64,000 nt of DNA. Source: Pristiophorus japonicus (taxonomy: Eukaryota). Positions 1 to 62,215 of the stretch are shown one piece after another. How positions within the stretch are numbered: the first letter of the stretch is position 1; every line of letters starts with the position of its first letter. The stretch is taken from the NCBI RefSeq assembly GCF_044704955.1, contig NC_091987.1, positions 181,722,001 through 181,786,000 on the forward strand. Reading direction: 5' to 3'. Below the pieces are notes generated by a model. The model searched no databases. It was not told the origin of the DNA and saw nothing but the letters and a program-made list of their open reading frames with translations. The position numbers and the translations under genes are program-made.

Positions 1-524
1 AGTCCTACACTCCTGATCTTTGGACACCCTATGCAGAGGGGAGCGGGTAGGTCCGAAGGCCTCCTCGTAGGACTGCTCCTGGGCACAGCCAAGCGGACCA
101 TCAGCCGGTCCAGGCAGCGGGCGGTCGAGGGGGTCGTTCAACCTGACTGCCTGCCTCTCTTCCGTGCTTACATCCGAGCCAGGGTGTCCTTAGAGATGGA
201 GCACACGGCCTTCCACGAGAGGTGGCCAACGGAGGAACTGGAGCGCATTATTACCTCCGGAAACCAAATTTAAATTTGATTTTATATGTTTTAAAGCTTA
301 ATTTGTTTTAACTGCCGGTTTTAGTGTCCCCCTCCCCTTTTATAGGGGGCACTTGTAAAATATGTGGTTTTGATGCCCCCAAAAGAATCACAAAAAAATC
401 CACAAAAAAAACCCAAAAAACATTTAAAAAAATAAAGGGGCAATTAAAAGTGTCTGGAGTGTCCCCCAGATCGGGGGGCACTTGATCTAATGTTTATTTT
501 GTTTCCCCCCACCGAAAAAAGAGT
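1..524 (+). mobile_element. Tx1-clade (L1 group) LINE 3' fragment, array unit 1
   Basis: ORF2 C-terminus (GLLVGLLLG..AISRSRQRAVEG..RARVSLEMEH), a 3' UTR with two GTGTCCCC..GGGGGCAC hairpins, and terminus AAAAGAGT followed by TGTAGAGC. Similar to the longer copy at 52172-53144, which has a zf-RVT-like C-x2-C..ES..H..C motif. Confidence 0.8.
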
Positions 525-534
525 TGTAGAGCAG

Positions 535-3500
535 TGTAGAGGATTCCGTGTTCCATGTTTTTATTGAATAGAAACATAGAAACATAGAAAATAGGTGCAG
601 GAGTAGGCCATTCGGCCCTTCGAGCCTGCACCACCATTCAATGAGTTCATGGCTGAACATGCAACTTCAGTACCCCATTCCTGCTTTCTCGCCAAACCCC
701 TTGATCCCCCTAGTAGTAAGAACGACATCTAACTCCTTTTTGAATATATTTAGTGAATTGGCCTCAACAACTTTCTGTGGTAGAGAATTCCACAGGTTCA
801 CCACTCTCTGGGTGAAGAAGCTTCTCCTCATCTCGGTCCTAAATGGCTTACCCCTTATCCTTAGACTGGTTCTGGACTTCCCCAACATTGGGAACATTCT
901 TCTTGCATCTAACCTGTCTAAACCCATCAGAATTTTAAACGTTTCCATGAGATCCCCTCTCATTCTTCTGAACTCCAGTGAATACAAGCCCAGTTGATCC
1001 AGTCTTTCTTGATATGTCAGTCCTGCCATCCCGGGAATCAGTCTGGTGAACCTTTGCTGCACTCCCTCAATAGCAAGAATGTCCTTCCTTAAGTTAGGAG
1101 ACCAAAACTGTACACAATATCCAGGTGTGGCCTCACCAAGGCCCTGTACAACTGTAGTAACACCTCCCTGCCCCTGTACTCAAATTCCCTCGCTATGAAG
1201 GCCAACATGCCATTTGCTTTCTTAACTGCCTGCTGTACCTGCATGCCAACCTTCAATGACTGATGTACCATGACACCCAGATCTCGTTGCACCTCCCCTT
1301 TTCCTAATCTGTCACCATTCAGATAATAGTCTGTCTCTCTGTTTTTACCACCAAAGTGGATAACCTCACATTTATCCACATTATACTTCATCTGCCATGC
1401 ATTTGCCCACTCACCTAACCTATCCAAGTCGCTCTGCAGCCTCATAGCATTCTCCTCGCAGCTCACACTGCCACCCAACTTAGTGTCATCCGCAAATTTG
1501 GAGATACTACATTTAATCCCCTCGTCTAAATCATTAATGTACAATGTAAACAGCTGGGGCCCCAGCACAGAACCTTGCGGTACCCCACTAGTCACTGCCT
1601 GCCATTCTGAAAAGTACCCATTTACTCCTACTCTTTGCTTCCTGTCTGACAACCAGTTCTCAATCCACATCAGCACACTACCCCAAATCCCATGTGCTTT
1701 AACTTTGCACATTAATCTCTTGTGTGGGACCTTGTCAAAAGCCTTCTGAAAGTCCAAATACACCACATCAACTGGTTCTTCCTTGTCCACTCTACTGGAA
1801 ACATCCTCAAAAAATTCCAGAAGATTTGTCAAGCATGATTTCCCTTTCACAAATCCATGCTGACTTGGACCTATCATGTCACCTCTTTCCAAATGCGCTG
1901 CTATGACATCCTTAATAATTGATTACATTATTTTACCCACTACCGATGTCAGGCTGACCGGTCTATAATTCCCTGTTTTCTCTCTCCCTCCTTTTTTAAA
2001 AAGTGGGGTTACAGTGGCTACCCTACACTCGATAGGAACTGATCCAGAGTCTTTGGAATGTTGGAAAATGACTGTCAATGCATCCACTATTTCCAAGGCC
2101 ACCTCCTTAAGTACTCTAGGATGCACACCATCAGGCCCTGGGGATTTATCGGCCTTCAATCCCATCAATTTCCCTAACACAATTTCCTGACTAATAAGGA
2201 TTTCCCTCAGTTCCTCCTTCTTACTAGACCCTCTGACCCCTTTTATATCCGGAAGGTTGTTTGTGTCCTCCTTAGTGAATACCAAACCAAAGTACTTGTT
2301 TAATTGGTCTGCCATTTCTTTGTTCCCCTTTATGACTTCCCCTGATTCTGACTGCAAGGGACCTACGTTTGTCTTTACTAACCTTTTTCTCTTTACATAT
2401 CTATAGAAGCTTTTGCAGTCCGTCTTAATGTTCCCTGCAAGTTTCCTCTCGTACTCTATTTTCCCTGCCCTAATCAAACCCTTTGTCCTCCTCTGCTGAG
2501 TTCTAAATTTCTCCCAGTCCCCGGGTTCACTGCTATTTCTGGCCAATTTGTATGCCACTTCCTTGGCTTTAACACTATCCCTGATTTCCCTTGATAGCCA
2601 CGGTTGAGCCACATTCCCTTTTTTATTTTTACGCCAGACAGGAATGTACAATTGTTGTAGTTCATCCACGCGGTCTCTAAATATCTGACATTGCCCATCC
2701 ACTGTCAACCCCTTAAGTATCATTCGCCAATCTATCCTAGGCAATTCACGCCTCATACCTTTAAAGTTACCCTTCTTTAAGTTCTGGACCATGGTCTCTG
2801 AATTAACTGTTTCATTCTCCATCCTAATGTAGAATTCCACTCTACATATTATGGTCACTCTTCCCCAAGGGGCCTCGCACAATGAGATTGCTAATTAATC
2901 CTCTCTCATTACACAACACCCAGTCTAAGATGGCTCCCCCCTAGTTGGTTCCTCGACATATTGGTCTAGAAAACCTTATGAATGCACGAGGTTGCAGCCC
3001 CTGTTCCATTATTTAAAGGGGCTGCTCCTGAATTTCTGGCTGCACTTCAGTCCCACACTCCTGACCTTTGGGCACCCTGTACGGAGGGGAGTGGGTAGGT
3101 CCGAGGGCCTCCTCGTAGGACTGCTCCTGGGCATGGCCAAGTGTGCCATCAGCCGGTCCAGGCAGCGGGCAGTCGAGGGGGTCGTTCAGCCTGACTGCCT
3201 GCCTCTCTTCCGTGCGTACATCCGCACCACGGTGCCCTTAGAGATGGAGCACGCGGTGTCCACCGGTACGCTCGTGGCCTTCCGCGAGAGGTGGGCGCCG
3301 GAGGTACTGGAGTGCATCGTCACCCCCGGCAACCAAATTTTAATTTGATTTTATATGTTTTAAAGTTCAATTTGTTTTAATTGCCGGTTTTAGTGTCCTC
3401 CTTTTATAGGGGGCACTTGTAAAATTTATGATTTTAGGGCCCAAAAAAAAACACAAAAATAACCCACAAAAAACAATTTAAAAAAAAGGAAAAAAAGGCA

Positions 3501-3578
3501 GTTGAAAAGTGTTTGGAATGTCCCCCAGATCAGGGGGCACTTGAATTAATGTTTATTTTGTTTCCAACCAGAAAGAGT
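535..3578 (+). mobile_element. Tx1-clade LINE 3' fragment, array unit 2, split by a CR1 (pieces 535-569 and 2976-3578)
   Basis: TCCGTGTTCCATGTTTTTATTGAAT at 545-569 continues as TTATGAATGCACGAGGTTGCAGCCC at 2976, matching the contiguous sequence in unit 3. Confidence 0.8.
570..2975 (-). mobile_element. CR1 LINE, 5'-truncated, ORF2 decayed
   Basis: RT motifs ([37 protein letters not shown]) in ORFs 1089-2882; (ATAGAAAC)n tail at the left end; imperfect TSD TTATTGAAT/TTATGAAT. Confidence 0.95.
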
Positions 3579-3592
3579 TGTAGAGCTGTTGA

Positions 3593-4249
3593 CTCCCAGG
3601 CCGTCTGTAATTTCAGCGGTCTAGAGAAGTCCGTGTTCCATGTTTTTATTGAATGCATGAGGTTGCAGCCCCTGTTCAACTATTTAAAGGGGCTGGTCCT
3701 GAAATTCTGGCTGCACTTCAGTCCCACACTCCTGATCTTTGGACACCCTGAGCAGAGGGAAACGGGTAGGTCCGAGGGCCTCCTCATGGGACTGCTCCTG
3801 GGCATGGCCAAGGGTGCCATCAGCCGGTCCAGGCAGCGGGCGGTCGAGGGGGTCGTTCAGCCCGACTGGATGCCTCTCCTCCGTGCGTACATCCGCGCGA
3901 GGGTGTCCTTAGAGATGGAGCACGCGGTGTCCACCGGTACACTCGCGGCCTACCGTGAGAGGTGGGTGCCGGAGGAACTGGAGTGCATTGTCACCCCCGG
4001 TAACCAAATTTTAATTTGATTTCATATGTTTGAAAGTTTAAATTGTTTTAATTGCTGGGTTTTAGTGTCCCCCCTCCCCTTTTATAGGGGGCGCTTGTAA
4101 ATTATGGTTTTAGTGCCCAAAAAAACCCCAAAAACTACAAAAAAACCCAAAAAAAACCTCAAAAAAGGGCAGTTGAAAAGTGTTTGGAGTGTCCCCCAGA
4201 TCGGGGGGCACTTGATTTAATGTTCATTTTGTTTCCAACCAGAAAGAGC
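3593..4249 (+). mobile_element. Tx1-clade LINE 3' fragment, array unit 3
   Basis: ORF 3513-4019 matches the same C-terminus; bounded by TGTAGAGCTGTTGA (3579-3592) and TGTAGAGCTATTGG (4250-4263). Confidence 0.85.
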
Positions 4250-4263
4250 TGTAGAGCTATTGG

Positions 4264-4804
4264 CTCCCAGGCCGTCTGTAATTTCTGCGGTCTGGAGGAG
4301 TCCGTGTTCCACGTCTATGTTCAATATGTGAAACTGCAGCCCCTCTTCCAATATTTGAAGGAGCTGATCCTCAAATTCTGGTTGCACTTCAGTCCCACGC
4401 TCCTGATCTTTGGGCACCCTGTGTGGAGGGGAGCGGGTTTGTTGGAAGGCATCCTCGTAGGACTGCTCCTGGGCATGACCAAGGAGGCCTTCAACCGGTC
4501 CAGACAGCGGGTGGTCGAGGGGTCGTTCAGCCCGACTGCCTGCATCTCTTCCACGGTTACATCCGAGCCAGGGTGTCCCTGGAGATGGAGCACACGGTGT
4601 CCACCGGTACGCTCGCAGCCTTCCATGAGAGGTGGACACCGGAGGGACTGGAGTACATCATCACCCCCGGCAACCAAATTTTAATTTGAACTACGTGTCT
4701 AAAGTTTAATTTGTTTGTCGGTTTTAGTGCCACCCCCCCCCCCTTTTAGCCAGGGGGTACTTGATTTAATGATTCATGTTTTTACAGGTACAACTCAAAG
4801 TAGT
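4264..4804 (+). mobile_element. Tx1-clade LINE 3' fragment, array unit 4 (short 3' UTR variant)
   Basis: CNFCGLEESVFHV motif, single-hairpin 3' UTR, ends AAAGTAGT then TGTCGAGCTGTTGAG. Confidence 0.85.
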
Positions 4805-5044
4805 TGTCGAGCTGTTGAGTTGGGAGTGGCTTAGTCAGTCACGTGATGTTCACAAGACTCAATAAAACCCCAGCCAGTTGGGTTTGGGGGATCCACGATG
4901 AGGCAGATAGTTGTGAGCCTGGTGGATGAACTGGTAATGTGTAGTGCGATTGTTAAACCTTTTGCTAATAAACGAACTAGTTCTTAATAGCAATGTGTTG
5001 CTATGAATTCTTAAGCAAGGAACCCATGACGCAAATATATTACA
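4805..5044 (+). mobile_element. 3' part of a small LTR (family A) that hosts the Tx1 array
   Basis: Aligns with the uninterrupted copy at 20080-20348 and with 25469-25708; contains AATAAA and ends ATTACA. Confidence 0.8.
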
Positions 5045-5724
5045 CAATGGAAGTTGACTGTTTCCCGATGATCGGAGCTCCATTCTCTGGATCTACAAGA
5101 AGTTGGGTTCCTGGTGCCTTTGGGAGCGGGGAGGTCAGCCTGTGCTACTGAAGTAGAGAGTAACATGAGCTTATTATCGATAGTTTGCGATTAGTGTACC
5201 AAATGTTTTTCGAATTACTCCCAGGCATTATTTTGCCTTTCCCCTTTGGGTCTGTGCTAAGCAGTAGTTCAGAGTGAAATAGGAAACAGAAATAGATTTT
5301 AATGACTGGTCTTTAACTGCTGCCCACACAGGAACTAACAAGCTGATTCAGAAAAATATCAGTGAGGAAATGACTGTCAGTGCTCCCCAGTCAATAGTTT
5401 GTGCAAAGAATGATTTTATTTTTGCTTCAACACCTTTGAAAAGGGGAATGAAAAAGGTTCTTTATCCAGCTGTAAATGTGGGGCCAGCGTATGGTCAGTG
5501 AAAGGAGCAGAGATTTGGATGAGTTGCTGGAAGATTGCCAGCCTGGGCAGGGGGCGTTCGATTGCGATGGGGAAATGCCCGGGAGAAATTGGGAGGGAAA
5601 AAAAAGCAAACCAAAAAAAAGTAAATATCATCTCTCATTCTCATTAACGTTATCCAATCTCGGAATATTTAGTTAAAGATTATAGCCTCGGAATGACGGC
5701 GGGTGATATCAGCAAACACTTTAA

Positions 5725-20079: not shown

Positions 20080-20348
20080 TGTAATGTATTGGTTCATGGA
20101 TTCTTTTCTTAAGAATTCATAGCAACACATTGCTATTAAGAACTAGTTGGTTTATTAGCAATGGTTTAACAATCACACTACACATTACCAGTTCATCCAC
20201 CAGGCTCGCAACCACCTCATCGTGTATTCCCTCAACCCAACTGGCTGGGGCTTTATTGAGTCTTGTGAATACGACGTGACTGACTAAGCCACTCCTAACT
20301 CAATAGCTCTACAGACCTGTGAGCATCCTCACAGGTGCATACATCACA
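20080..20348 (-). mobile_element. Solo LTR, family A (empty Tx1 target site)
   Basis: TGT..ACA termini, 5-bp TSD CTGAA/CCGAA (1 mismatch), AATAAA on the minus strand, single TGTAGAGCTATTGAG at 20299-20313. Confidence 0.85.
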
Positions 20349-25005: not shown

Positions 25006-25708
25006 TGTAACGTATGCACCGATGAGTATTCTCACAGGTTTGTAGAGCTATTGAGAAGGGGCTGCTCCTCAAATTATGGTTGTACTTCAGTTCCACGCTC
25101 CTGATCTTTGGGCATCCTGTGCGGAGGGGAGCGGGTAGGTTGGAAGGCCTACTCGTAGGACTGCTCCTGGGCATGGCCAAGGGGGCCATCAGCTGGTCCA
25201 GGCAGCGGGCGGTCGAGGGGGTTGTTTAGCCCAACCGCCTGCCGCTCTTCCATGGGTACATCTGAGCCAGGGTGTCCCTGGAGATGGAGCACGCGGTGTC
25301 CACCGGTATTCTCACAGTCTTCCGTGAGAGGTGGGCACCCATGGCAACCAAATTTGAATTTCAACCATTATTGTTAAAAGTTAATTTATTTAAATTTGCG
25401 GTTTTAGTGCTCCTTTAATAAGAGGTAATTTGATTTACATTTGATTTACAGGTGCAACCAAAAATAGTTGTAGAGCTGTTGAGTTGGGAGTGGCTTAGCC
25501 AGTCACATGATAGTCACAAGACTCAATAAAACCCCAGCCAGTTGGATTCAGGGGATGCACGATGAGGCAGACGGTTGTGAACCTGGTGGATGAACTGGTA
25601 ATGTGTAGTGTGATTGTTAAACCTATTGCTAATAAAGCAACTAGTTCTTAACAACAATGTGTTGCTATGAATTCTTAAGCAAAGAACCCATGAAGCAAAT
25701 ACATTACA
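25006..25708 (+). mobile_element. LTR family A interrupted by one Tx1 fragment (25056-25468)
   Basis: TGTAACGTATGCACC..CTCACAGGT start; TSD TGTAGAGCTATTGAG (25041-25055) and TGTAGAGCTGTTGAG (25469-25483); ends ATTACA. Confidence 0.9.
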
Positions 25709-25730
25709 CAATGGAAGTTGACGGTTTTCC

Positions 25731-40771: not shown

Positions 40772-41597
40772 TTATATATATATAAGAAAGAAAGAACTTG
40801 CATTTATGTCCATTGTGCTTGCACTAAGTTTCAAATATGTGTCACCAAAACTATCATTGCCAAGGGTTCCCTTGTGGAAGGGTGTTAGCTGGTTGCAGGT
40901 TTCACTAACAAAGGCTGGTATTCTGGTGACACTAAATATCCCTGAGCGTGACATTACGGTTCCTTTCTGATTGGCTAGCCCACTGTGTGGGAGAGAATAC
41001 TAAAAAAATAAACATAATGTGTGAACCAGCAGCAAATTTTCCCCGAGATGTAACCCAAAGCTTGTCCGTATTCAAGCGATGGCACCTCTGAGAGTGCAAC
41101 CCTCCCTCAGTACTGTCAGTGAAGCGTTAACCTAGATTAGGTGCTCAAATGGCAACATCTGGGACTGTTTTGGCTGAGTGGTGCTGCCTGCTTTAAGATA
41201 TCTGTGCCTTAGTAGATCAGGTGCTTCTGGGGAGGGAATGGAAAGGATGAGCACCAGTCCCTTTAAATATGGATCTTCCCTCCCTGAGCCCTTGCAGAAG
41301 GGTTTCAGCCCCTGGCCAATCCAATTGGCTTTTCTCAGACTGTAATGACATAAATCTATCTCAGGTTGGTGAGCAATCAGCTAGCTCTGCCTCCCCACCG
41401 CTTAAGCACAGAGCTGCGTTAATGCAGCGCCTTTCTGATTGGCTAGCCCACTGTGTGGGAGAGAATACTAAAAAAAAATAAACATAATGTGTGAACCAGC
41501 AGCAAATTTTCACCGAGATGTAACCCAAAGCTTGTCCACAAGGGACGGCATTAGATGCCTAGTGAGGGAAGCGTTAGATGCTCAGCAAGGAGTGGTG

Positions 41598-42078
41598 TTC
41601 GAGCCTAGCGAGGGGCTGAGGCCGAGCCCAGCGAGGGGCTGAGGCCGAGCCCAGCGACAGGCGGACGTTGAGCCCAGCGAGGGGAGGCACTCGAGCCCAG
41701 CGAGGGGCGGAGGTTGAGCCCAGCGAGGGGTGGAGGTCGAGCCCAGCGAGGGGAGGCACTCGAGCCTAGCGAGGGGCTGAGGCCGAGCCCAGCGAGAGGC
41801 GGAGGTTGAGCCCAGCGAGGGGAGGCACTCGAGCCCAGCGAGGGGAGGCACTCGAGCCCAGCGAGGGGCGGAGGTCGAGCCCAGCGAGGGGCGGAGGTTG
41901 AGCCCAGCGAGGGGAGGCACTCGAGCCTAGCGAGGGGCGGCGTTCGAGCCCAGCAAGGGGCGGCGTTCGAACCTAGCGAGGGGCTGAGGCCGAGCCCAGC
42001 GAGAGGCGGAGGTTGAGCCCAGCGAGGTGAGGCACTCGAGCCCAGCGAGGGGCGGAGGTCGAGCCCAGCGAGGGGAGG
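41598..42078. repeat. GC-rich minisatellite of about 20-21 bp, about 23 units
   Basis: GAGCCCAGCGAGGGG(CGGAGGTT/AGGCACTC/CTGAGGCC) variants. Confidence 0.95.
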
Positions 42079-42340
42079 CGCAGTATTTAACAGCAGTGGG
42101 GTCGTGGTTCAGGGGAGGTGCATCAGAGCTTGGTCTCCAGTTGTATTGGTCAATCCTTGCCACTGGACCAAGACCTAGCTCTGTCAAACCCGTGTGGTGG
42201 CTGATGTGCAACGGTCACCACACGTTAAAAAAATCCACGCACAGGCATCTTCCACTCTTTAAGATGTAACTCATTGTAACACCTGTGAGCCCATCTTTTT
42301 TTGGTGTGAAGAGTGTCATCCTTGTCACGAGGGACTGCTT
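42079..42340 (+). mobile_element. Body and 3' end of an RTE-tailed retroposon
   Basis: CCTTGCCACTGGA..GTGTGGTGGCTGATGTGCAACGGTCACCACACGTTAAAAAAATCCACGCACAGGCATCTTCCAC..GAGGGACTGC, the reverse complement of the 24022/34416 family. Confidence 0.7.
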
Positions 42341-51450: not shown

Positions 51451-54121
51451 ACATAAGAACATAAGAACATAAGAATTAGGAACAGGAGTAGGCCATCTAG
51501 CCCCTCGAGCCTGCTCCGCCATTCAATAAGATCATGGCTGATCTGGTCGTGGACTCAGCTCCACTTACCCGCCCTCTCCCCATAACCCTTAATTCCCTTA
51601 TTGCTTAAAAATCTATCTATCTTTGACTTGAAAACATTCAATGAGCCAGCCTCAACTGCTTCCTTGGGCAGAGAATTCCACAGATTCACAACCCTCTGGG
51701 AGAAGAAATTCTTTCTCAACTCGGTTTTAATTTGACTCCTCCGTATTTTGAGGCTGTGCCCCCTAGTTCTAGTCTCCCCCACCAATGGAAACAACCTCTC
51801 TGCCTCTATCTTGTCTATCCCTTTCATGATTTTAAAAGTTTCTATAAGATCACCCCTCATCCTTCTGAACTCCAAGGAGTAAAGACCCAGTCTACTCAAT
51901 CTATCATCATAAGGTAACCCCCTCATTTCTCGAATCAGCCTAGTGAATCATCTCTGTACCCCTTCCAAAGCTAGTATATCCTTCCTTAAGTAAGGTGACC
52001 AAAACTGCACGCAGTACTCCAGGTGCGGCCTTACCAATACCTTATATAGTTGCAGCAACACCTCCCTGCTTTTGTACTCCATACCTTTCGCAATGAAGGC
52101 CAACATTCCATTTGCCTTCCTGATTATCTGCTGCACCTGCAAACTAACCTTTTGGGATTCATGCACAAGGAGACGGAATTCCTCATCGGCGCCAAACCCC
52201 GGAACCTCCCTCAAGGGCCGGCGCCTCACAACTTGAGCTGCCTCGGGGAAATCCCCTCCGTGCCTTTCAGTTCCGCGCGGAGGGGTTTCCTGTACGGGCT
52301 GCTCCTGCACACTCTCAACTTTGCCATCCTCGCCGGCCGTCCGGACACGCCATGGCGTACCATCTTGCCGTCCGGAGGAGGCGGGGGTCCCCGATGGAGA
52401 GCACTCTACGCAGGGGTCCTCCCACTATTCATCGGGGACTTGGCCTGGAGGGTGGTGCACGGAGCAGTGCCGTGCAACAAATTTTTAAGCCGGTTCACGG
52501 ACTCCCAGGCCGCCTGCAATTTCTGCGGTCTGGAAGAGTCCGTGTTCCATGTTTTTATGGAATGCACAAGGTTGCAGCCCCTGTTTTATTATTTGAAGGG
52601 GCTGCTCCTGAAATTCTGGCTGCACTTCAGTTCCACTCTCCTGATCTTTGGGCACCCTGTGCGGAGGGGAGCGGGTAGGTCCGAAGGCCTCCTCGTAGGA
52701 CTGCTCCTGGGCACGGCCAAGGGTGCCATCAGCCGGTCCAGGCAGCGGGCGGTCGAGGGGGTCCTTCAACCTGACTGCCTGCCTCTCTTCCGCTCTTACA
52801 TCCGGTCCAGGGTGTCCTTGGAGATGGAGCACGCGGTGTCCACCGGTACGCTCGCGGCCTTCCGCGAGAGGTGGGCACCAGACTGGAGTGCATCATCACG
52901 CCCGGCAACCAAATTTTAATGTGATTTTACGTTTTAAAGTTTAATTTGTTTTAATTGCCGGTGCTTTTAGTGTCCCCCTTCCCTTTTATAGGGGGCACGG
53001 GGGAAAAATTGTGATTTTAGCGCCCGGAAAAAAAAAACCACAAAAAAAGGAAAAAAAAGGGGCCTTGAAAATGTCGGCCGTGTCACCCAGGCGGGTGGCA
53101 CGGTTTAATGTTTATGTTTTTTTTTCAGGTAAACTCAAAAGAGTTTCATGCACAAGGACCCCCAGGTCCCTCTGCACCACAGCATGTTGTAATTTCTCCC
53201 CATTCAAATAATATTCCCTTTTACTGTTTTTTCCCCAAGGTGGATGACCTCACACTTTCCGACATTGTATTCCATCTGCCAAACCTTAGCCCATTCGCTT
53301 AACCTATCCAAATCTCCTTGCAGCATCTCAGAGTCCTCCATACAACCCGCTTTCCCACTAATCTTAGTGTCATCTGCAAATTTTGTTGCACTACACTCTG
53401 TCCCCTCCTCTAGGTCATCTATGTATATTGCAAACAGTTGTGGTCCCAGTACTGATCCCTGTGGCACACCACTAACCACTGATTTCCAACCGGAAAAGGA
53501 CCCATTTATCCCGACTCTCTGCTTTCTGTTCGCCAGCCAATTCTCTATCCATGCTAATACATTTCCTCTGACTCCGCGTACCTTTATCTTCTGCAGTAAC
53601 CTTTTGTGTGGCACCTTATCGAATGCCTTTTGGAAATCTAAATACACCACATCCATCGGTACACCTCTATCCACCATGCTCGTTATATCCTCAAAGAATT
53701 CCAGTAAGTTAGTTAAACATGATTTCCCTTTCATGAATCCATGCTGCGTCTGCTTGATTGCACTATTCCTATCTAGATGTCCCACTATTTCTTCCTTAAT
53801 GATAGTTTCAAGCATTTTCCCCACTACAGAGGTTAAACTAACCGGCCTATAGTCTGCCCCCTTTTTTAAACAGAGGCGTTACATTAGCTGCTTTCCAATC
53901 CGCTGGTACCTCCCCAGAGTCCAGAGAATTTTGGTAGATTATAACAAATGCATCTGCTATAACTTCCGCCATCTCTTTTAATACCCTGGGATGCATTTCA
54001 TCAGGACCAGGGGACTTGTCTACCTTGAGTCCCATTAGCCTGTCCAGCACTACCACCTAGTGATAGTGATTGTCTCAAGGTCCTCCCTTCCCACATTCCT
54101 ATGACCAGCAATTTTTGGCAT
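51451..54121 (-). mobile_element. CR1 LINE nested in the SNX18 fragment
   Basis: (ATAAGAAC)n tail at 51451-51475; RT ORFs 53204-54056 and 51555-51926. Confidence 0.95.
52172..53144 (+). mobile_element. Tx1-clade LINE 3' fragment nested in the CR1
   Basis: DLAWRVVHGAVPCN..CNFCGLEESVFHVFMEC (zf-RVT-like); perfect 14-bp TSD TTCATGCACAAGGA (52158-52171 and 53145-53158); ends AAAAGAGT. Confidence 0.9.
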
Positions 54122-59696: not shown

Positions 59697-61124
59697 TTAT
59701 CTCATGCCTCTTCTGATGGTCATGAACCGCCGAGTTTAAGATACGTTGATGGGCAAGTACGCGATGCCCTCTCGGGCGATGGCGCGCTGGGACCTGGCGG
59801 AATCCGACACCCACATCTTCTTCTGTCTCAGCAGCTGTAGCTGGCACTCCTCTTCAGTGTGAAACATACGGAGCAAATAACAGGGCAATGTCACATCCTC
59901 AAATTCCCGATACGTGCACCGGTCACCCGAGACCATAAAATGCGCCTCAGAAATTTTCGGCTCCCAGCGAATGTCAATCTAGTATAGCAGGCCAAAGTGA
60001 GCTGGCTGCATTCAATTGCCCATGGTCAGCTCATCTGCAACTTACTTATAGCTCCCGTACAGTTTTGTTCAGTGTGCAAGGGGTACGGTTAATGGGGAAG
60101 GGAGAGGGAACCAAAAATCGGACATATTTAACAGGATGTGGCCACTTAAAGGTAAGTGGCTGCGTAAAAGAACAAAAGTTCTTAGTGCTTTTGACTAAGA
60201 TCAAAAGGTCTTTAAACTGATGGCAGCTTTTAATGACTGAAGTGGGTGGGGGGAGGTGGTGGGGGCGGTCAGAGGTGCTCGGTAAAAATGAAATGAAATG
60301 AACAGGGTTTGCACGCAAGTGACGGAGCAGATCAGCAAACAATTCCCGTGTTAGGGCTGGCAAAATGGGCACAGTGGGTGCGTGGTGGGCTGCCCTGTTT
60401 GATACTCCTCGGCGCCCACTCCGAAGGGCGACAGCGCCTGAAAGGAGCACGAGACCTAAGGGCTGAAGTGACTTTCACAGCAACTGGCAGTGCTGTGCCT
60501 TTGGTGAAAAGTGATCATAGCCCACATTTTTGCTCCATTACCGTCTGATTGTGTCCGTTTTGGAGTGAGACGGAAGTGCCTCACCCAATTATGGATATTC
60601 AAGTCATACACAGATGTGGGCTTTAAATACATGTCTCTCTATATATTAAAAGTTTTGGGTCGGGTGTGCACTTCCTGTTCACAAACCTTATTTCCTGTTG
60701 CTGTGATATTTGGTCACACTTCTGTGTCAACATTTCCCATTCAGTTTTGCTATGTCAACTGTCACAATGCAGTTCCAGACTCTGGCCTGTGGGTGGCTCT
60801 ATGGAGTGACTTTCTGAAGTCTCTCTCCTTACTTAGTCATCATCACATGTGTATATATAAACAACTTACATTTATCAACTGTTTGTGGGCAATGTCACAG
60901 GCAATTTACTTGTCATTTATTAAAGACTTGTGTCTAGCGACACATTTCTTGTTTTTTGCACTTTTCTCATCGCACTTTCATTTTATTTGATAATATTAAT
61001 ATATTAGGCATTTGTTAATCATTTGCAATGGAGTAGGGAGTTAACGAGGCTGTACCATCCCAAGCTAGAGGAATGGTCTTCACAAGTGCGACAGTAGACC
61101 AGCTGCAAATGTCAGACATTCCTG

Positions 61125-62212
61125 AGGATCCACTGCAAATATTAACGCATTCCCAGAGACCCCCTGCAAACACTGACACACTCCCGGACAACCCCCGTAA
61201 ACATTGGCACACTCCCAGGGACCCCCAGCAAATACTGACACACGCCTGGACAACCCCCGTAAACATTGGCACACTCCCAGAGACTCCTATAACCCCAATA
61301 CATTCCCGGGCAACCCCTGCAAACATTGACACACTCCCAGAGACTCCTATAACCCTGATACATTCCCGGGCAACCCCTGTAAACACTGACACACTCCCAG
61401 AGACTCCTATAACCCCAATACATTCCCGGGCAACCTCTGCAAACATTGACACACACCCAGAGACTCCTATAACCCCGATACATTCCCGGGCAACCCCTGT
61501 TAAAACTGACACACTCCCAGAGACTCCTATAACCCCGATACATTCCCGGGCAACCCCTGTAAACACTGACACACTCCCAGAGACTCCTATAACCCCAATA
61601 CATTCCTGGGCAACCCCTGCAAACATTGACACACACCCAGGGAATCCTATAACCCCAATACATTCCCGGGCAACCCCTGTAAACATTGGCACACTCCCAG
61701 GGAATCCTATAACCCCAATACATTCCCGGGCAACCCCTCTAAACACTGACACACTCCTGGACAACCCCTGTAAACATTCACACACTCCCAGAGAATCCTA
61801 CAACCCTGATACATTCCCGGGTAACCCCTCTAAACACTGACACACTCCCGGACAATCCCTGTAAACATTCACACACTCCCAGAGAATCCTATAACCCTGA
61901 TACATTCCCGGGTAACCGCTCTGAACACTGACACACTCCCGGACAACCCCTGTAAACATTCACATACTCCCAGAGAATCCTATAACCCTGATACATTCCC
62001 GGGTAACCCCTCTAAACACTGACACACTCCCGGACAACCCCTGTAAACACTGACACACACCCAGGGATCCCCAGCAAATACTGACACACTCCCGGACAAC
62101 CGCTGCAAACATTGACACACTCCCAGAGACTCCTATAACCCCGATACATTCCCGGGCAACCCCTGTAAACACTGACACACCCAGAGACCCCCAGCAAATA
62201 CTGACACACTGC
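61125..62212. repeat. Minisatellite, 60-bp unit built from two 30-bp subunits
   Basis: AAACACTGACACACTCCCAGAGACTCCTATAACCCCAATACATTCCCGGGCAACCCCTGT in register over consecutive 60-nt lines; switches to a 90-bp period after about 61740. Confidence 0.97.
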
Positions 62213-62215
62213 CAG

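Follow-up and report, generated by a model that had tools for sequence, protein, structure and literature searches.

Several long interspersed nuclear elements (LINEs) of the Tx1 clade are reported to insert preferentially into other repeats. In crocodilians, the families Tx1-8_Crp, Tx1-4_AMi and Tx1-Mar/SINEU-3 prefer specific long terminal repeat (LTR) retrotransposons; they form tandems that sandwich the target-site duplication (TSD), which were read as the result of sequential insertion, small-RNA heads joined to Tx1 were described, and two preferred regions in Mariner-N4 were found to have no recognisable similarity (Kojima 2015, PMC4494074). Tx1L of Xenopus laevis (YTX2) likewise targets another transposon (PMC1950540). 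R1, a LINE of the apurinic/apyrimidinic endonuclease (APE) type, builds arrays in Drosophila 28S ribosomal DNA (rDNA) in which a 14-bp TSD lies between the units; these arrays are reported to grow by new copies entering the TSD at the resident's 5' end, and annealing of the complementary DNA (cDNA) to the top strand was proposed for some of the junctions (Stage and Eickbush 2009, PMC2718515). Furthermore, double insertion of transposable elements has been described as leaving the TSD in the tandem junction and as re-using preferred sites (McGurk and Barbash 2018, PMC5932611). LTR-targeting Tx1 elements and TSD tandems (PMC4494074), 5'-growing LINE arrays (PMC2718515) and double insertion (PMC5932611) are therefore already in print. 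Here we analyse a Tx1-clade LINE, referred to below simply as Tx1, in a stretch of 64,000 nucleotides (nt) from the 5.9-Gb genome of Pristiophorus japonicus (NC_091987.1), which as a whole is called the window, and at other loci of this genome, whose labels start with L. In the account that we consider probable, this LINE inserts at a TGT about 18 nt past a CANNTG motif, in about half of the cases within one family of LTR-like elements, and arrays likely arise by re-insertion at the first target copy, with the cDNA annealing to the resident copy and the junction being inherited.

Samples

Copies of Tx1 were collected with a 27-mer from its long 3' untranslated region (UTR), which has 1,142 exact matches in the genome. 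The discovery set, which is enriched for arrays, includes the first 30 listed matches (28 loci), whose target words were judged by eye. The held-out set consists of 40 of the next 42 listed matches, one of the omitted rows lying in the array of its neighbour. A sister subfamily of Tx1 was probed with its exact 3' end, which has 3,935 genome matches, and 30 of these ends were inspected. In addition, 40 random 10-kb stretches, used as background only, contained Tx1 in two cases and the LTR-like element in none.

A CANNTG motif at a fixed distance from the insertion site

The target of Tx1 consists of CANNTG, a spacer of 17-20 nt and TGT(R). At held-out sites outside the LTR-like element, CANNTG ends 17-20 nt before the nick in 14 of 17 cases, and its CASSTG form does so in 10 of 17; as a control, each of eight other 4-offset windows yielded the motif 0-1 times, and the background before any TGT is 2.2% for CANNTG and 0.45% for CASSTG. 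One of the three held-out misses (L216) is an inner unit that was misread as a first one. In the discovery set, 10 of 20 non-LTR sites have a perfect motif at this distance. The spacer of the 25 perfect sites is 18 nt long in 14, 19 nt in six, 17 nt in two, 20 nt in two and 21 nt in one, and their core reads GC in eight, CC in six, GG in five, GA and TC in two each, and GT and CT in one each, which amounts to symmetric use. The LTR-like element carries CACCTG at the right distance. When elements were chosen by their LTR sequence, the motif was intact in 21 of 26 filled versus 7 of 23 empty elements (p=5e-4), and over all loci it was intact in 53 of 65 filled versus 12 of 32 empty ones. In the case of L020, a deletion between motif and site accompanies a cut that has shifted downstream and lies again 18 nt from the motif. 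In the sister subfamily the nick word differs, and another LINE provides one site at which 24 of the 30 ends are found, four of these 24 representing one amplified event; CANNTG is present at 18-19 nt in all nine first junctions that could be resolved among these ends, five of which lie outside the main target.

The motif could be read by a factor of the host or by the LINE. A host E-box factor that tethers the Tx1 particle at a fixed distance is a close second candidate after the one that we prefer, and is compatible with the rest of our account; possible readers are a basic helix-loop-helix (bHLH) dimer or a Snail/ZEB-type protein, and in targeting of the Ty3 and TRE5 type a motif-bound host DNA-binding protein recruits the integration machinery. 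The core is used symmetrically, as expected of a dimeric binder, the motif lies 18-24 nt from the nick, and it stays constant while the word at the nick varies between subfamilies. In addition, no extra DNA-binding or motif-reading domain could be identified in open reading frame (ORF) 1 or ORF2 by Pfam, or by fold in the C-terminal part of ORF2. On the other hand, the spacing is tight (18-19 nt in 20 of 25 sites), as would readily be explained by one protein that measures the distance, and the structure of the L1 ORF2 protein (ORF2p) shows upstream DNA held as duplex by thumb, wrist and C-terminal domain (PMC7617806), a region that the model of the Tx1 C-terminal part matches with a template modelling (TM) score of 0.50-0.56. 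By analogy with these L1 domains, we lean towards ORF2p itself as the reader of CANNTG.

Organisation and growth of the arrays

The window opens inside an array of Tx1 units. With at most two mismatches, the target word occurs seven times in the window as against 0.89 expected, and seven occurrences were reached in 0 of 100 shuffles. The array and the other Tx1 or LTR-like copies of the window are as follows.

Further upstream, in G000:C11 (L031:9032-9773): unit 1 and the 5' part of the LTR-like element
1..524, plus strand: 3' part of Tx1 unit 2 of 5, with long 3' UTR; it begins at the shared junction, 126 nt before the window
525..535, plus strand: target-site copy degraded by a local deletion, which also took the first bases of unit 3
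530..3578, plus strand: Tx1 unit 3, with long 3' UTR, split by a later LINE insertion
569..2971, minus strand: LINE bearing a reverse transcriptase (RT; Pfam RVT_1), inside unit 3
3579..3592, plus strand: target-site copy between units 3 and 4
3593..4249, plus strand: Tx1 unit 4, C-terminal end of ORF2 and long 3' UTR, beginning at the shared junction
4250..4263, plus strand: target-site copy between units 4 and 5
4264..4804, plus strand: Tx1 unit 5, with short 3' UTR and the same junction, probably the oldest
4805..5044, plus strand: last target copy and 3' part of the probable solo LTR-like element, with the 5-bp flank repeat at 5045-5049
20080..20348, minus strand: empty LTR-like element, with intact CACCTG at 20332-20337 and target at 20300-20313
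25006..25708, plus strand: LTR-like element in which two target copies flank one short-UTR Tx1 (25055-25468), with a decayed upstream motif at 25017-25022
52134..53157, plus strand: sister-subfamily Tx1 (~52171-53144) inside another LINE, with CACCTG at 52134-52139, an 18-nt spacer and a different duplicated target (52158-52170 and 53145-53157)

A sequence-only reading of this stretch had proposed that a Tx1-clade LINE repeatedly targets one 15-bp site in an LTR family and so builds a head-to-tail array. The target copies that it placed at 525, 3579, 4250 and 4805 are present, the first of them degraded through a local deletion, and so are the single copy in the empty LTR-like element (20300-20313, minus strand) and the two copies that flank one Tx1 (25041 and 25469). 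The LTR start that it predicted upstream was found ~870 nt before window base 1, in the neighbouring assembly stretch, where it is followed by a target copy, one whole Tx1 unit and the beginning of unit 2, which ends at 524. The array as a whole reads LTR start, five target-plus-unit blocks, last target copy and LTR rest, with the 5-bp flank repeat at both ends. The units do differ in sequence (84-91% identity) and in the form of the 3' UTR, but the same reading was mistaken in assuming that they differ in 5' truncation: four of the five (the two upstream ones and those at window 3593 and 4264) have their 5' start at one base, and the fifth, unit 3, has a short local deletion at the shared 5' junction. 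The rest of the LTR comes after the last unit only, and not after each fragment as had been stated; the others adjoin the next unit. The 2.4-kb minus-strand RT-bearing LINE (~569-2971) that splits one unit, perhaps CR1-like, had been left out. A rare variant 11 nt from the junction is common to all five units and one at 30 nt to the four upstream units; beyond these, pairs of window units share 0-2 others of 11-26 rare variants each.

Two lines of evidence indicate that arrays grow mainly at their 5' end. Firstly, the motif is absent at 17-20 nt from all 108 junctions between a Tx1 end and a target copy and, therefore, only the first target copy stays a full site. Secondly, there is a CpG polarity: in the discovery set, more CpG is retained by the first unit than by the last in 28 arrays, less in four and as much in four, and in the held-out set more in 12 and less in two; by pair, the last pair gave 28:5. 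Nested mutations in the target copies (5 versus 1 of 26 arrays) are consistent with this but weak, and one case on each side depends on a last or first copy that was misplaced. As in 5'-growing arrays of the R1 type, a TSD formed by a target copy separates the units. The proposal that the TSD regenerates the target is thus correct in that re-insertion at the duplicated target is the main form of growth, but full regeneration occurs only at the 5' end of an array. A 'ratchet' by which newer units are shorter was considered but found no support, shorter and longer units numbering 26 and 24 in the discovery set and 12 and 5 in the held-out set.

The 5' junctions are shared within arrays. Adjacent units start at most 8 nt apart in 48 of 100 pairs of the array-enriched discovery set and in 34 of 51 held-out pairs, compared with 261 of 15,880 pairs between loci (1.6%), and common junctions are also seen in non-LTR arrays. 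Furthermore, the upstream unit carries rare non-CpG variants of its downstream neighbour with a frequency that depends on the distance from the junction: over 76 pairs, 27/58 recur at 0-25 nt, 15/42 at 25-50, 16/81 at 50-100, 20/149 at 100-200, 24/222 at 200-400 and 21/455 beyond 400 nt, that is, 47, 36, 20, 13, 11 and 5%, while unrelated copies used as control share 1-2%. The curve of the held-out set alone is noisier (8/24, 3/12, 2/29, 2/48, 12/78 and 7/105 in the same bins). In 14 arrays of two units, sharing is 35/97 within 200 nt and 5/115 beyond; with two units, no long homology was there for unequal crossover. When sequence beyond 200 nt is compared, 4 of 36 pairs have the neighbour as their closest match, and mean identity is 0.927 to the neighbour versus 0.928 to other loci; for the 3' UTR, the neighbour is closest in 1 of 35 pairs, a count affected by imperfect end-calling. 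In L072 and L070, ~92 and 241 nt of front end, respectively, are joined to a shorter piece. One common 5' junction together with a single clade had been named as the mark of a single insertion amplified later; such junctions are indeed common within arrays, but the units are not copies of each other.

Preference for the LTR-like element

Among the 28 discovery loci from the 27-mer matches, the LTR-type target word was judged by eye to be present at 11 and absent at 17. The 40 held-out matches comprise 16 LTR and 17 non-LTR cases, five that are cut by the edge of the locus and two without detectable duplication; the LTR share is therefore 16 of 33 classifiable cases, well within the range (more than 20% of flanks in one repeat type) that Kojima took to indicate a target-specific family. 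Among elements anchored at their 5' part, 19 of 30 are filled, with 18 different Tx1 5' starts and unrelated flanks, and among those anchored at their 3' part, 15 of 30 have a Tx1 end at the site. Because there are 18 different starts in 19 filled elements, and the flanks are unrelated, the insertions at the LTR-like site are independent and do not reflect hitchhiking with the host repeat. Targeting of the LTR site with truncations that vary between loci is thus borne out, and the 15-bp word retains a role in that about half of the loci lie at it and the extra LTR preference is real. It is not the specificity determinant, as about half of the insertions lie elsewhere, most of them with only TGT plus CANNTG 17-20 nt upstream, nor is such a target new, since Tx1 families that prefer LTR elements have been described (PMC4494074). 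Rough extrapolation from 13/69 and 12/120 exact motif matches gives ~16,000 LTR-like elements and ~11,000 Tx1 units.

The target element is ~275 bp long, has TG...CA ends and 10-bp inverted ends, contains AATAAA and, in 30 of 46 pairings of its ends, is flanked by a 5-bp repeat. No common internal flank could be found among 67 right ends and 70 left ends, nor an internal region among 30 of 54 target-element ends with the TGG word next. Since no internal region was found, the element is likely, although unproven, to be a solo LTR, and its sequence would also be possible for an element like a miniature inverted-repeat transposable element. The LTR-like ends, the TSD and the AATAAA agree with the designation 'LTR family', which stays unproven, all examined copies being solo.

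Three side observations concern target sequences. The stretch from motif to nick in the LTR-like element, for instance at window 20318-20337, contains an 8-bp inverted repeat (4-nt loop) that overlaps the motif and may contribute to the preference for the element. At the non-LTR loci L211, L218 and L220, the motif stands 18 nt before TGTGG in another repeated host sequence common to all three, which may represent a third repeat family that serves as a target. Near one array, L082:7500-8480 contains an RT fragment (Pfam RVT_1) that looks retroviral or of LTR type.

Proposed mechanism

The mechanism that we propose starts from two observations. The LTR-like element holds the full target, CANNTG-N17-20-TGT(R), in its first 50 nt, and after insertion the motif stands at the right distance only at the upstream target copy, with the older units on the 3' side. 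The APE endonuclease would nick the bottom strand at this first copy, and reverse transcription would start from the 3' end of the RNA. The cDNA would then pair with the top strand of the resident past the target, and the top strand would be cut inside the resident and prime the second strand. The real duplication would in this case consist of the target plus the front end of the resident and, therefore, the junction and nearby private variants would reach the newcomer. In the pairs described above, the new unit is a chimera: it has the 5' junction of its downstream neighbour and private variants of it over tens to ~200 nt, with a body and a 3' UTR unrelated to that neighbour. Tracts long enough to cover a short unit would account for the short-long patterns that recur in L141 and L144.

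There is precedent for parts of this scheme. In the case of R2, seamless junctions are reported to form by annealing of as little as 11 bp (PMC11331408, PMC11371274), and a pairing-first route through a 4-way junction has been proposed, its use by APE LINEs being left undetermined in that work (PMC6895275). For L1, structures indicate that nicking of the top strand takes place early, within ~20 nt (PMC7617806). If Tx1 nicks as early as L1, long tracts would have to arise through strand invasion, with copying carried out by host repair, and our data cannot separate such copying from late cleavage of the top strand. The more specific combination of a host E-box factor that tethers the LINE 18 nt away with pairing of cDNA and resident before the top-strand cut seems to us rather unlikely. 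If it were true, thousands of loci would be ordered, leader-proximal tapes of successive Tx1 subfamilies, and they would hold the first in vivo record of the pairing-first (4-way junction) second-strand mechanism in an APE LINE.

Contrary evidence and alternative explanations

It should be noted that several observations weigh against our account. As regards the motif, 10 of 20 non-LTR sites in the discovery set and 3 of 17 in the held-out set have no perfect copy of it at 17-20 nt, and in the window the array has CACCAG, with one mismatch, while the copy at 25 kb has two; for these window motifs decay after insertion must therefore be assumed. The motif alone cannot explain the LTR bias either, given ~16,000 elements versus ~1 million CASSTG-type sites (rough figures); the extra bias could come from pairing of read-through RNA with the target word, from the hairpin-forming inverted repeat upstream, or from chromatin. 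As regards the arrays, the order among pairs other than the last is weak (19:10, p=0.14), which suggests that inner target copies are used at times. In a tree of 99 rows and 249 columns, the hypothesis that each array forms a single clade is rejected for only 2 of 8 arrays, and not for the window array (p=0.37); good support is limited to 9 of 96 branches of this star-like tree, which has little power. Neighbours with different starts share variants in 9/187 cases, above the control of ~1.5%, so that some ordinary conversion occurs, and 5 of 76 pairs share at least 25% of their distal variants. Window units 3 and 4 have a common 3' end that occurs only 14 times genome-wide, which fits duplication or conversion for that pair. 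Overall, about one unit in ten has the appearance of a later duplication or a long conversion.

One could suppose that units arrived by independent ordinary insertions at the first target copy, and that later local gene conversion or deletion imposed the common junction. Such events would yield chimeric units and polarity, and the sharing between different-start neighbours, as well as the 24 of 100 pairs in which the upstream unit is the longer one, would find an explanation. Nevertheless, half to two thirds of the pairs would need the same precise secondary event, the tracts begin exactly at the junction, and to the left of an array's first junction the homology extends over only ~14 nt, all of which makes this alternative improbable. 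We regard it as slightly less probable still that the arrays are tandem duplications, produced by slippage or unequal crossover across the 14-bp target copies and followed by conversion from dispersed copies. Duplication would account for the common 5' junctions, the tree test says little against it, and the few neighbours that match best (4/36 and 1/35), the 5/76 pairs with distal sharing and window units 3 and 4 resemble true duplicates. It is largely refuted as the main route by the drop of variant sharing from 47% to 5% with distance, also seen in two-unit arrays, by the 3' UTR forms that vary within arrays, and by the younger unit being nearly always 5', which duplication does not predict. 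Finally, although about half of the loci lie at the word, 19 of 30 sampled elements are filled and the extra LTR preference is real, the version of the sequence-only reading in which the 15-bp word itself is recognised, all duplicated copies are equal targets and each unit has its own truncation is very improbable and refuted in that form, because half of the loci share only TGT, elements that retain the word without CANNTG are mostly empty, units of one array have their truncation in common, and use of the last target copy is rare, as the 28:5 of the last pair indicates.

Identity of the LINE and further observations

That the LINE belongs to the Tx1 clade, as first proposed, is supported by its ORF2, which is 54% identical to that of Xenopus Tx1L across the whole 751-aa query; among the 120 matches listed, Xenopus Tx1 ORF2 was the only one whose name gives a family. 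Over the C-terminal 502 aa of ORF2, identity to Tx1L is 41%. As in other members of the clade, there are two ORFs: ORF2 has an N-terminal APE endonuclease, an RT and a C-terminal cysteine motif, and ORF1 is a 630-aa frame upstream of it with a weak zf-CCHC match (E=0.004, below the cut-off). A full-length Tx1 of 6.66 kb lies within the same LTR-like site in L083 and contains RVT_1 and zf-RVT by Pfam. In L098, near-intact sister-subfamily copies combine a zinc-knuckle ORF1 with an APE-RT ORF2, in which Pfam finds Exo_endo_phos (2e-10), RVT_1 (1e-36) and zf-RVT (5e-5, below the cut-off). The fold predicted for the C-terminal 506 aa of ORF2 (pLDDT 83.7) matched only L1 ORF2p, at the TM scores given above; human L1 ORF2p matches this part by fold, with 11-12% identity.

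The sister subfamily (window 52134-53157; L098; L255-L284; G000:C1:131.79-131.81 Mb) is younger, and it forms tandems of full-length copies whose 3' ends are ~6.55 kb apart. A short interspersed nuclear element suspected in its target site was discarded, L255-L258 being one 35-nt Tx1 tail amplified together with its surroundings. Within arrays, short units follow an LTR-type word unlike the local one in L072 (unit 3), L076 (unit 3), L144 (unit 5) and L192, and these look like 3' transductions from source elements that were themselves in arrays. Whole 5S rRNA copies (Rfam RF00001, 77 and 73 bits) lie between target copies in an array at L141:1573-1705 and 2503-2633, joined to a short Tx1 3' tail; 5S-like pieces were also seen by eye at Tx1 junctions in L004 and L142, without an Rfam match for L004, and together these pieces look like recurrent 5S-Tx1 chimeras. 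L147, L206 and L213 contain insertions into the 5' region of Tx1 itself (~positions 6-11 and 867 of the full-length copy).

In the window, the right flanks of two LTR-like copies 20 kb apart (5045-5066 and 25709-25730) are identical at 20 of 22 nt. A left 5-bp repeat that matches is present at the first copy alone, this exact junction is found a single time genome-wide, and the LTR parts of the two are no closer to each other than to other copies (219/240); the common right flank is perhaps due to local conversion. Tandem repeat arrays with long open frames lie at 61116-62215 and 41540-42080.

Comparison with known systems

Our results provide a concrete, mutable targeting rule for an APE-type LINE, namely a distal CANNTG, a fixed spacer and a short nick word that varies between subfamilies. 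This rule explains how seemingly unrelated targets (an LTR-like repeat, another LINE and unique DNA) come to be used, and it may extend to Tx1 families whose targets reportedly lack similarity. A distal, modular specificity element would also be of interest for gene insertion with site-specific LINEs. The arrays, for their part, provide a relative chronology of subfamilies, and the copied front-end tracts bear on the question, raised in PMC6895275, of whether the cDNA of an APE LINE pairs with the top strand before it is cut. In a literature search that did not extend to subscription papers and Repbase reports, we found no description of a distal CANNTG determinant at fixed distance for a LINE, nor of independent tandem insertions that inherit a truncation junction.

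The closest described systems differ from the one studied here in the following respects. In the crocodilian Tx1 families, the main text of the report presents no distal motif, polarity test or common truncation junction (PMC4494074). Tx1L, to whose ORF2 that of our LINE is 54% identical over APE and RT, targets a DNA transposon, and its isolated endonuclease is reported to nick a local site (PMC1950540). R1 has a single rDNA target, and the available text reports no inherited truncation junction or long copied tracts (PMC2718515). R2 is a precedent for annealed 5' junctions (PMC11331408, PMC6895275), but it uses a restriction-like endonuclease, and the homology comes from rRNA in its RNA (PMC11331408, PMC11371274, PMC6895275), whereas here an APE LINE takes its homology from the resident copy, over tens to hundreds of nt. 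Lastly, identical 5' truncations in tandem LINEs are usually read as duplication, and in the work on double insertion distinct 5' truncations served as evidence of independent events (PMC5932611); in the arrays of P. japonicus, by contrast, independent events leave identical truncations, most of which stem from separate insertions.

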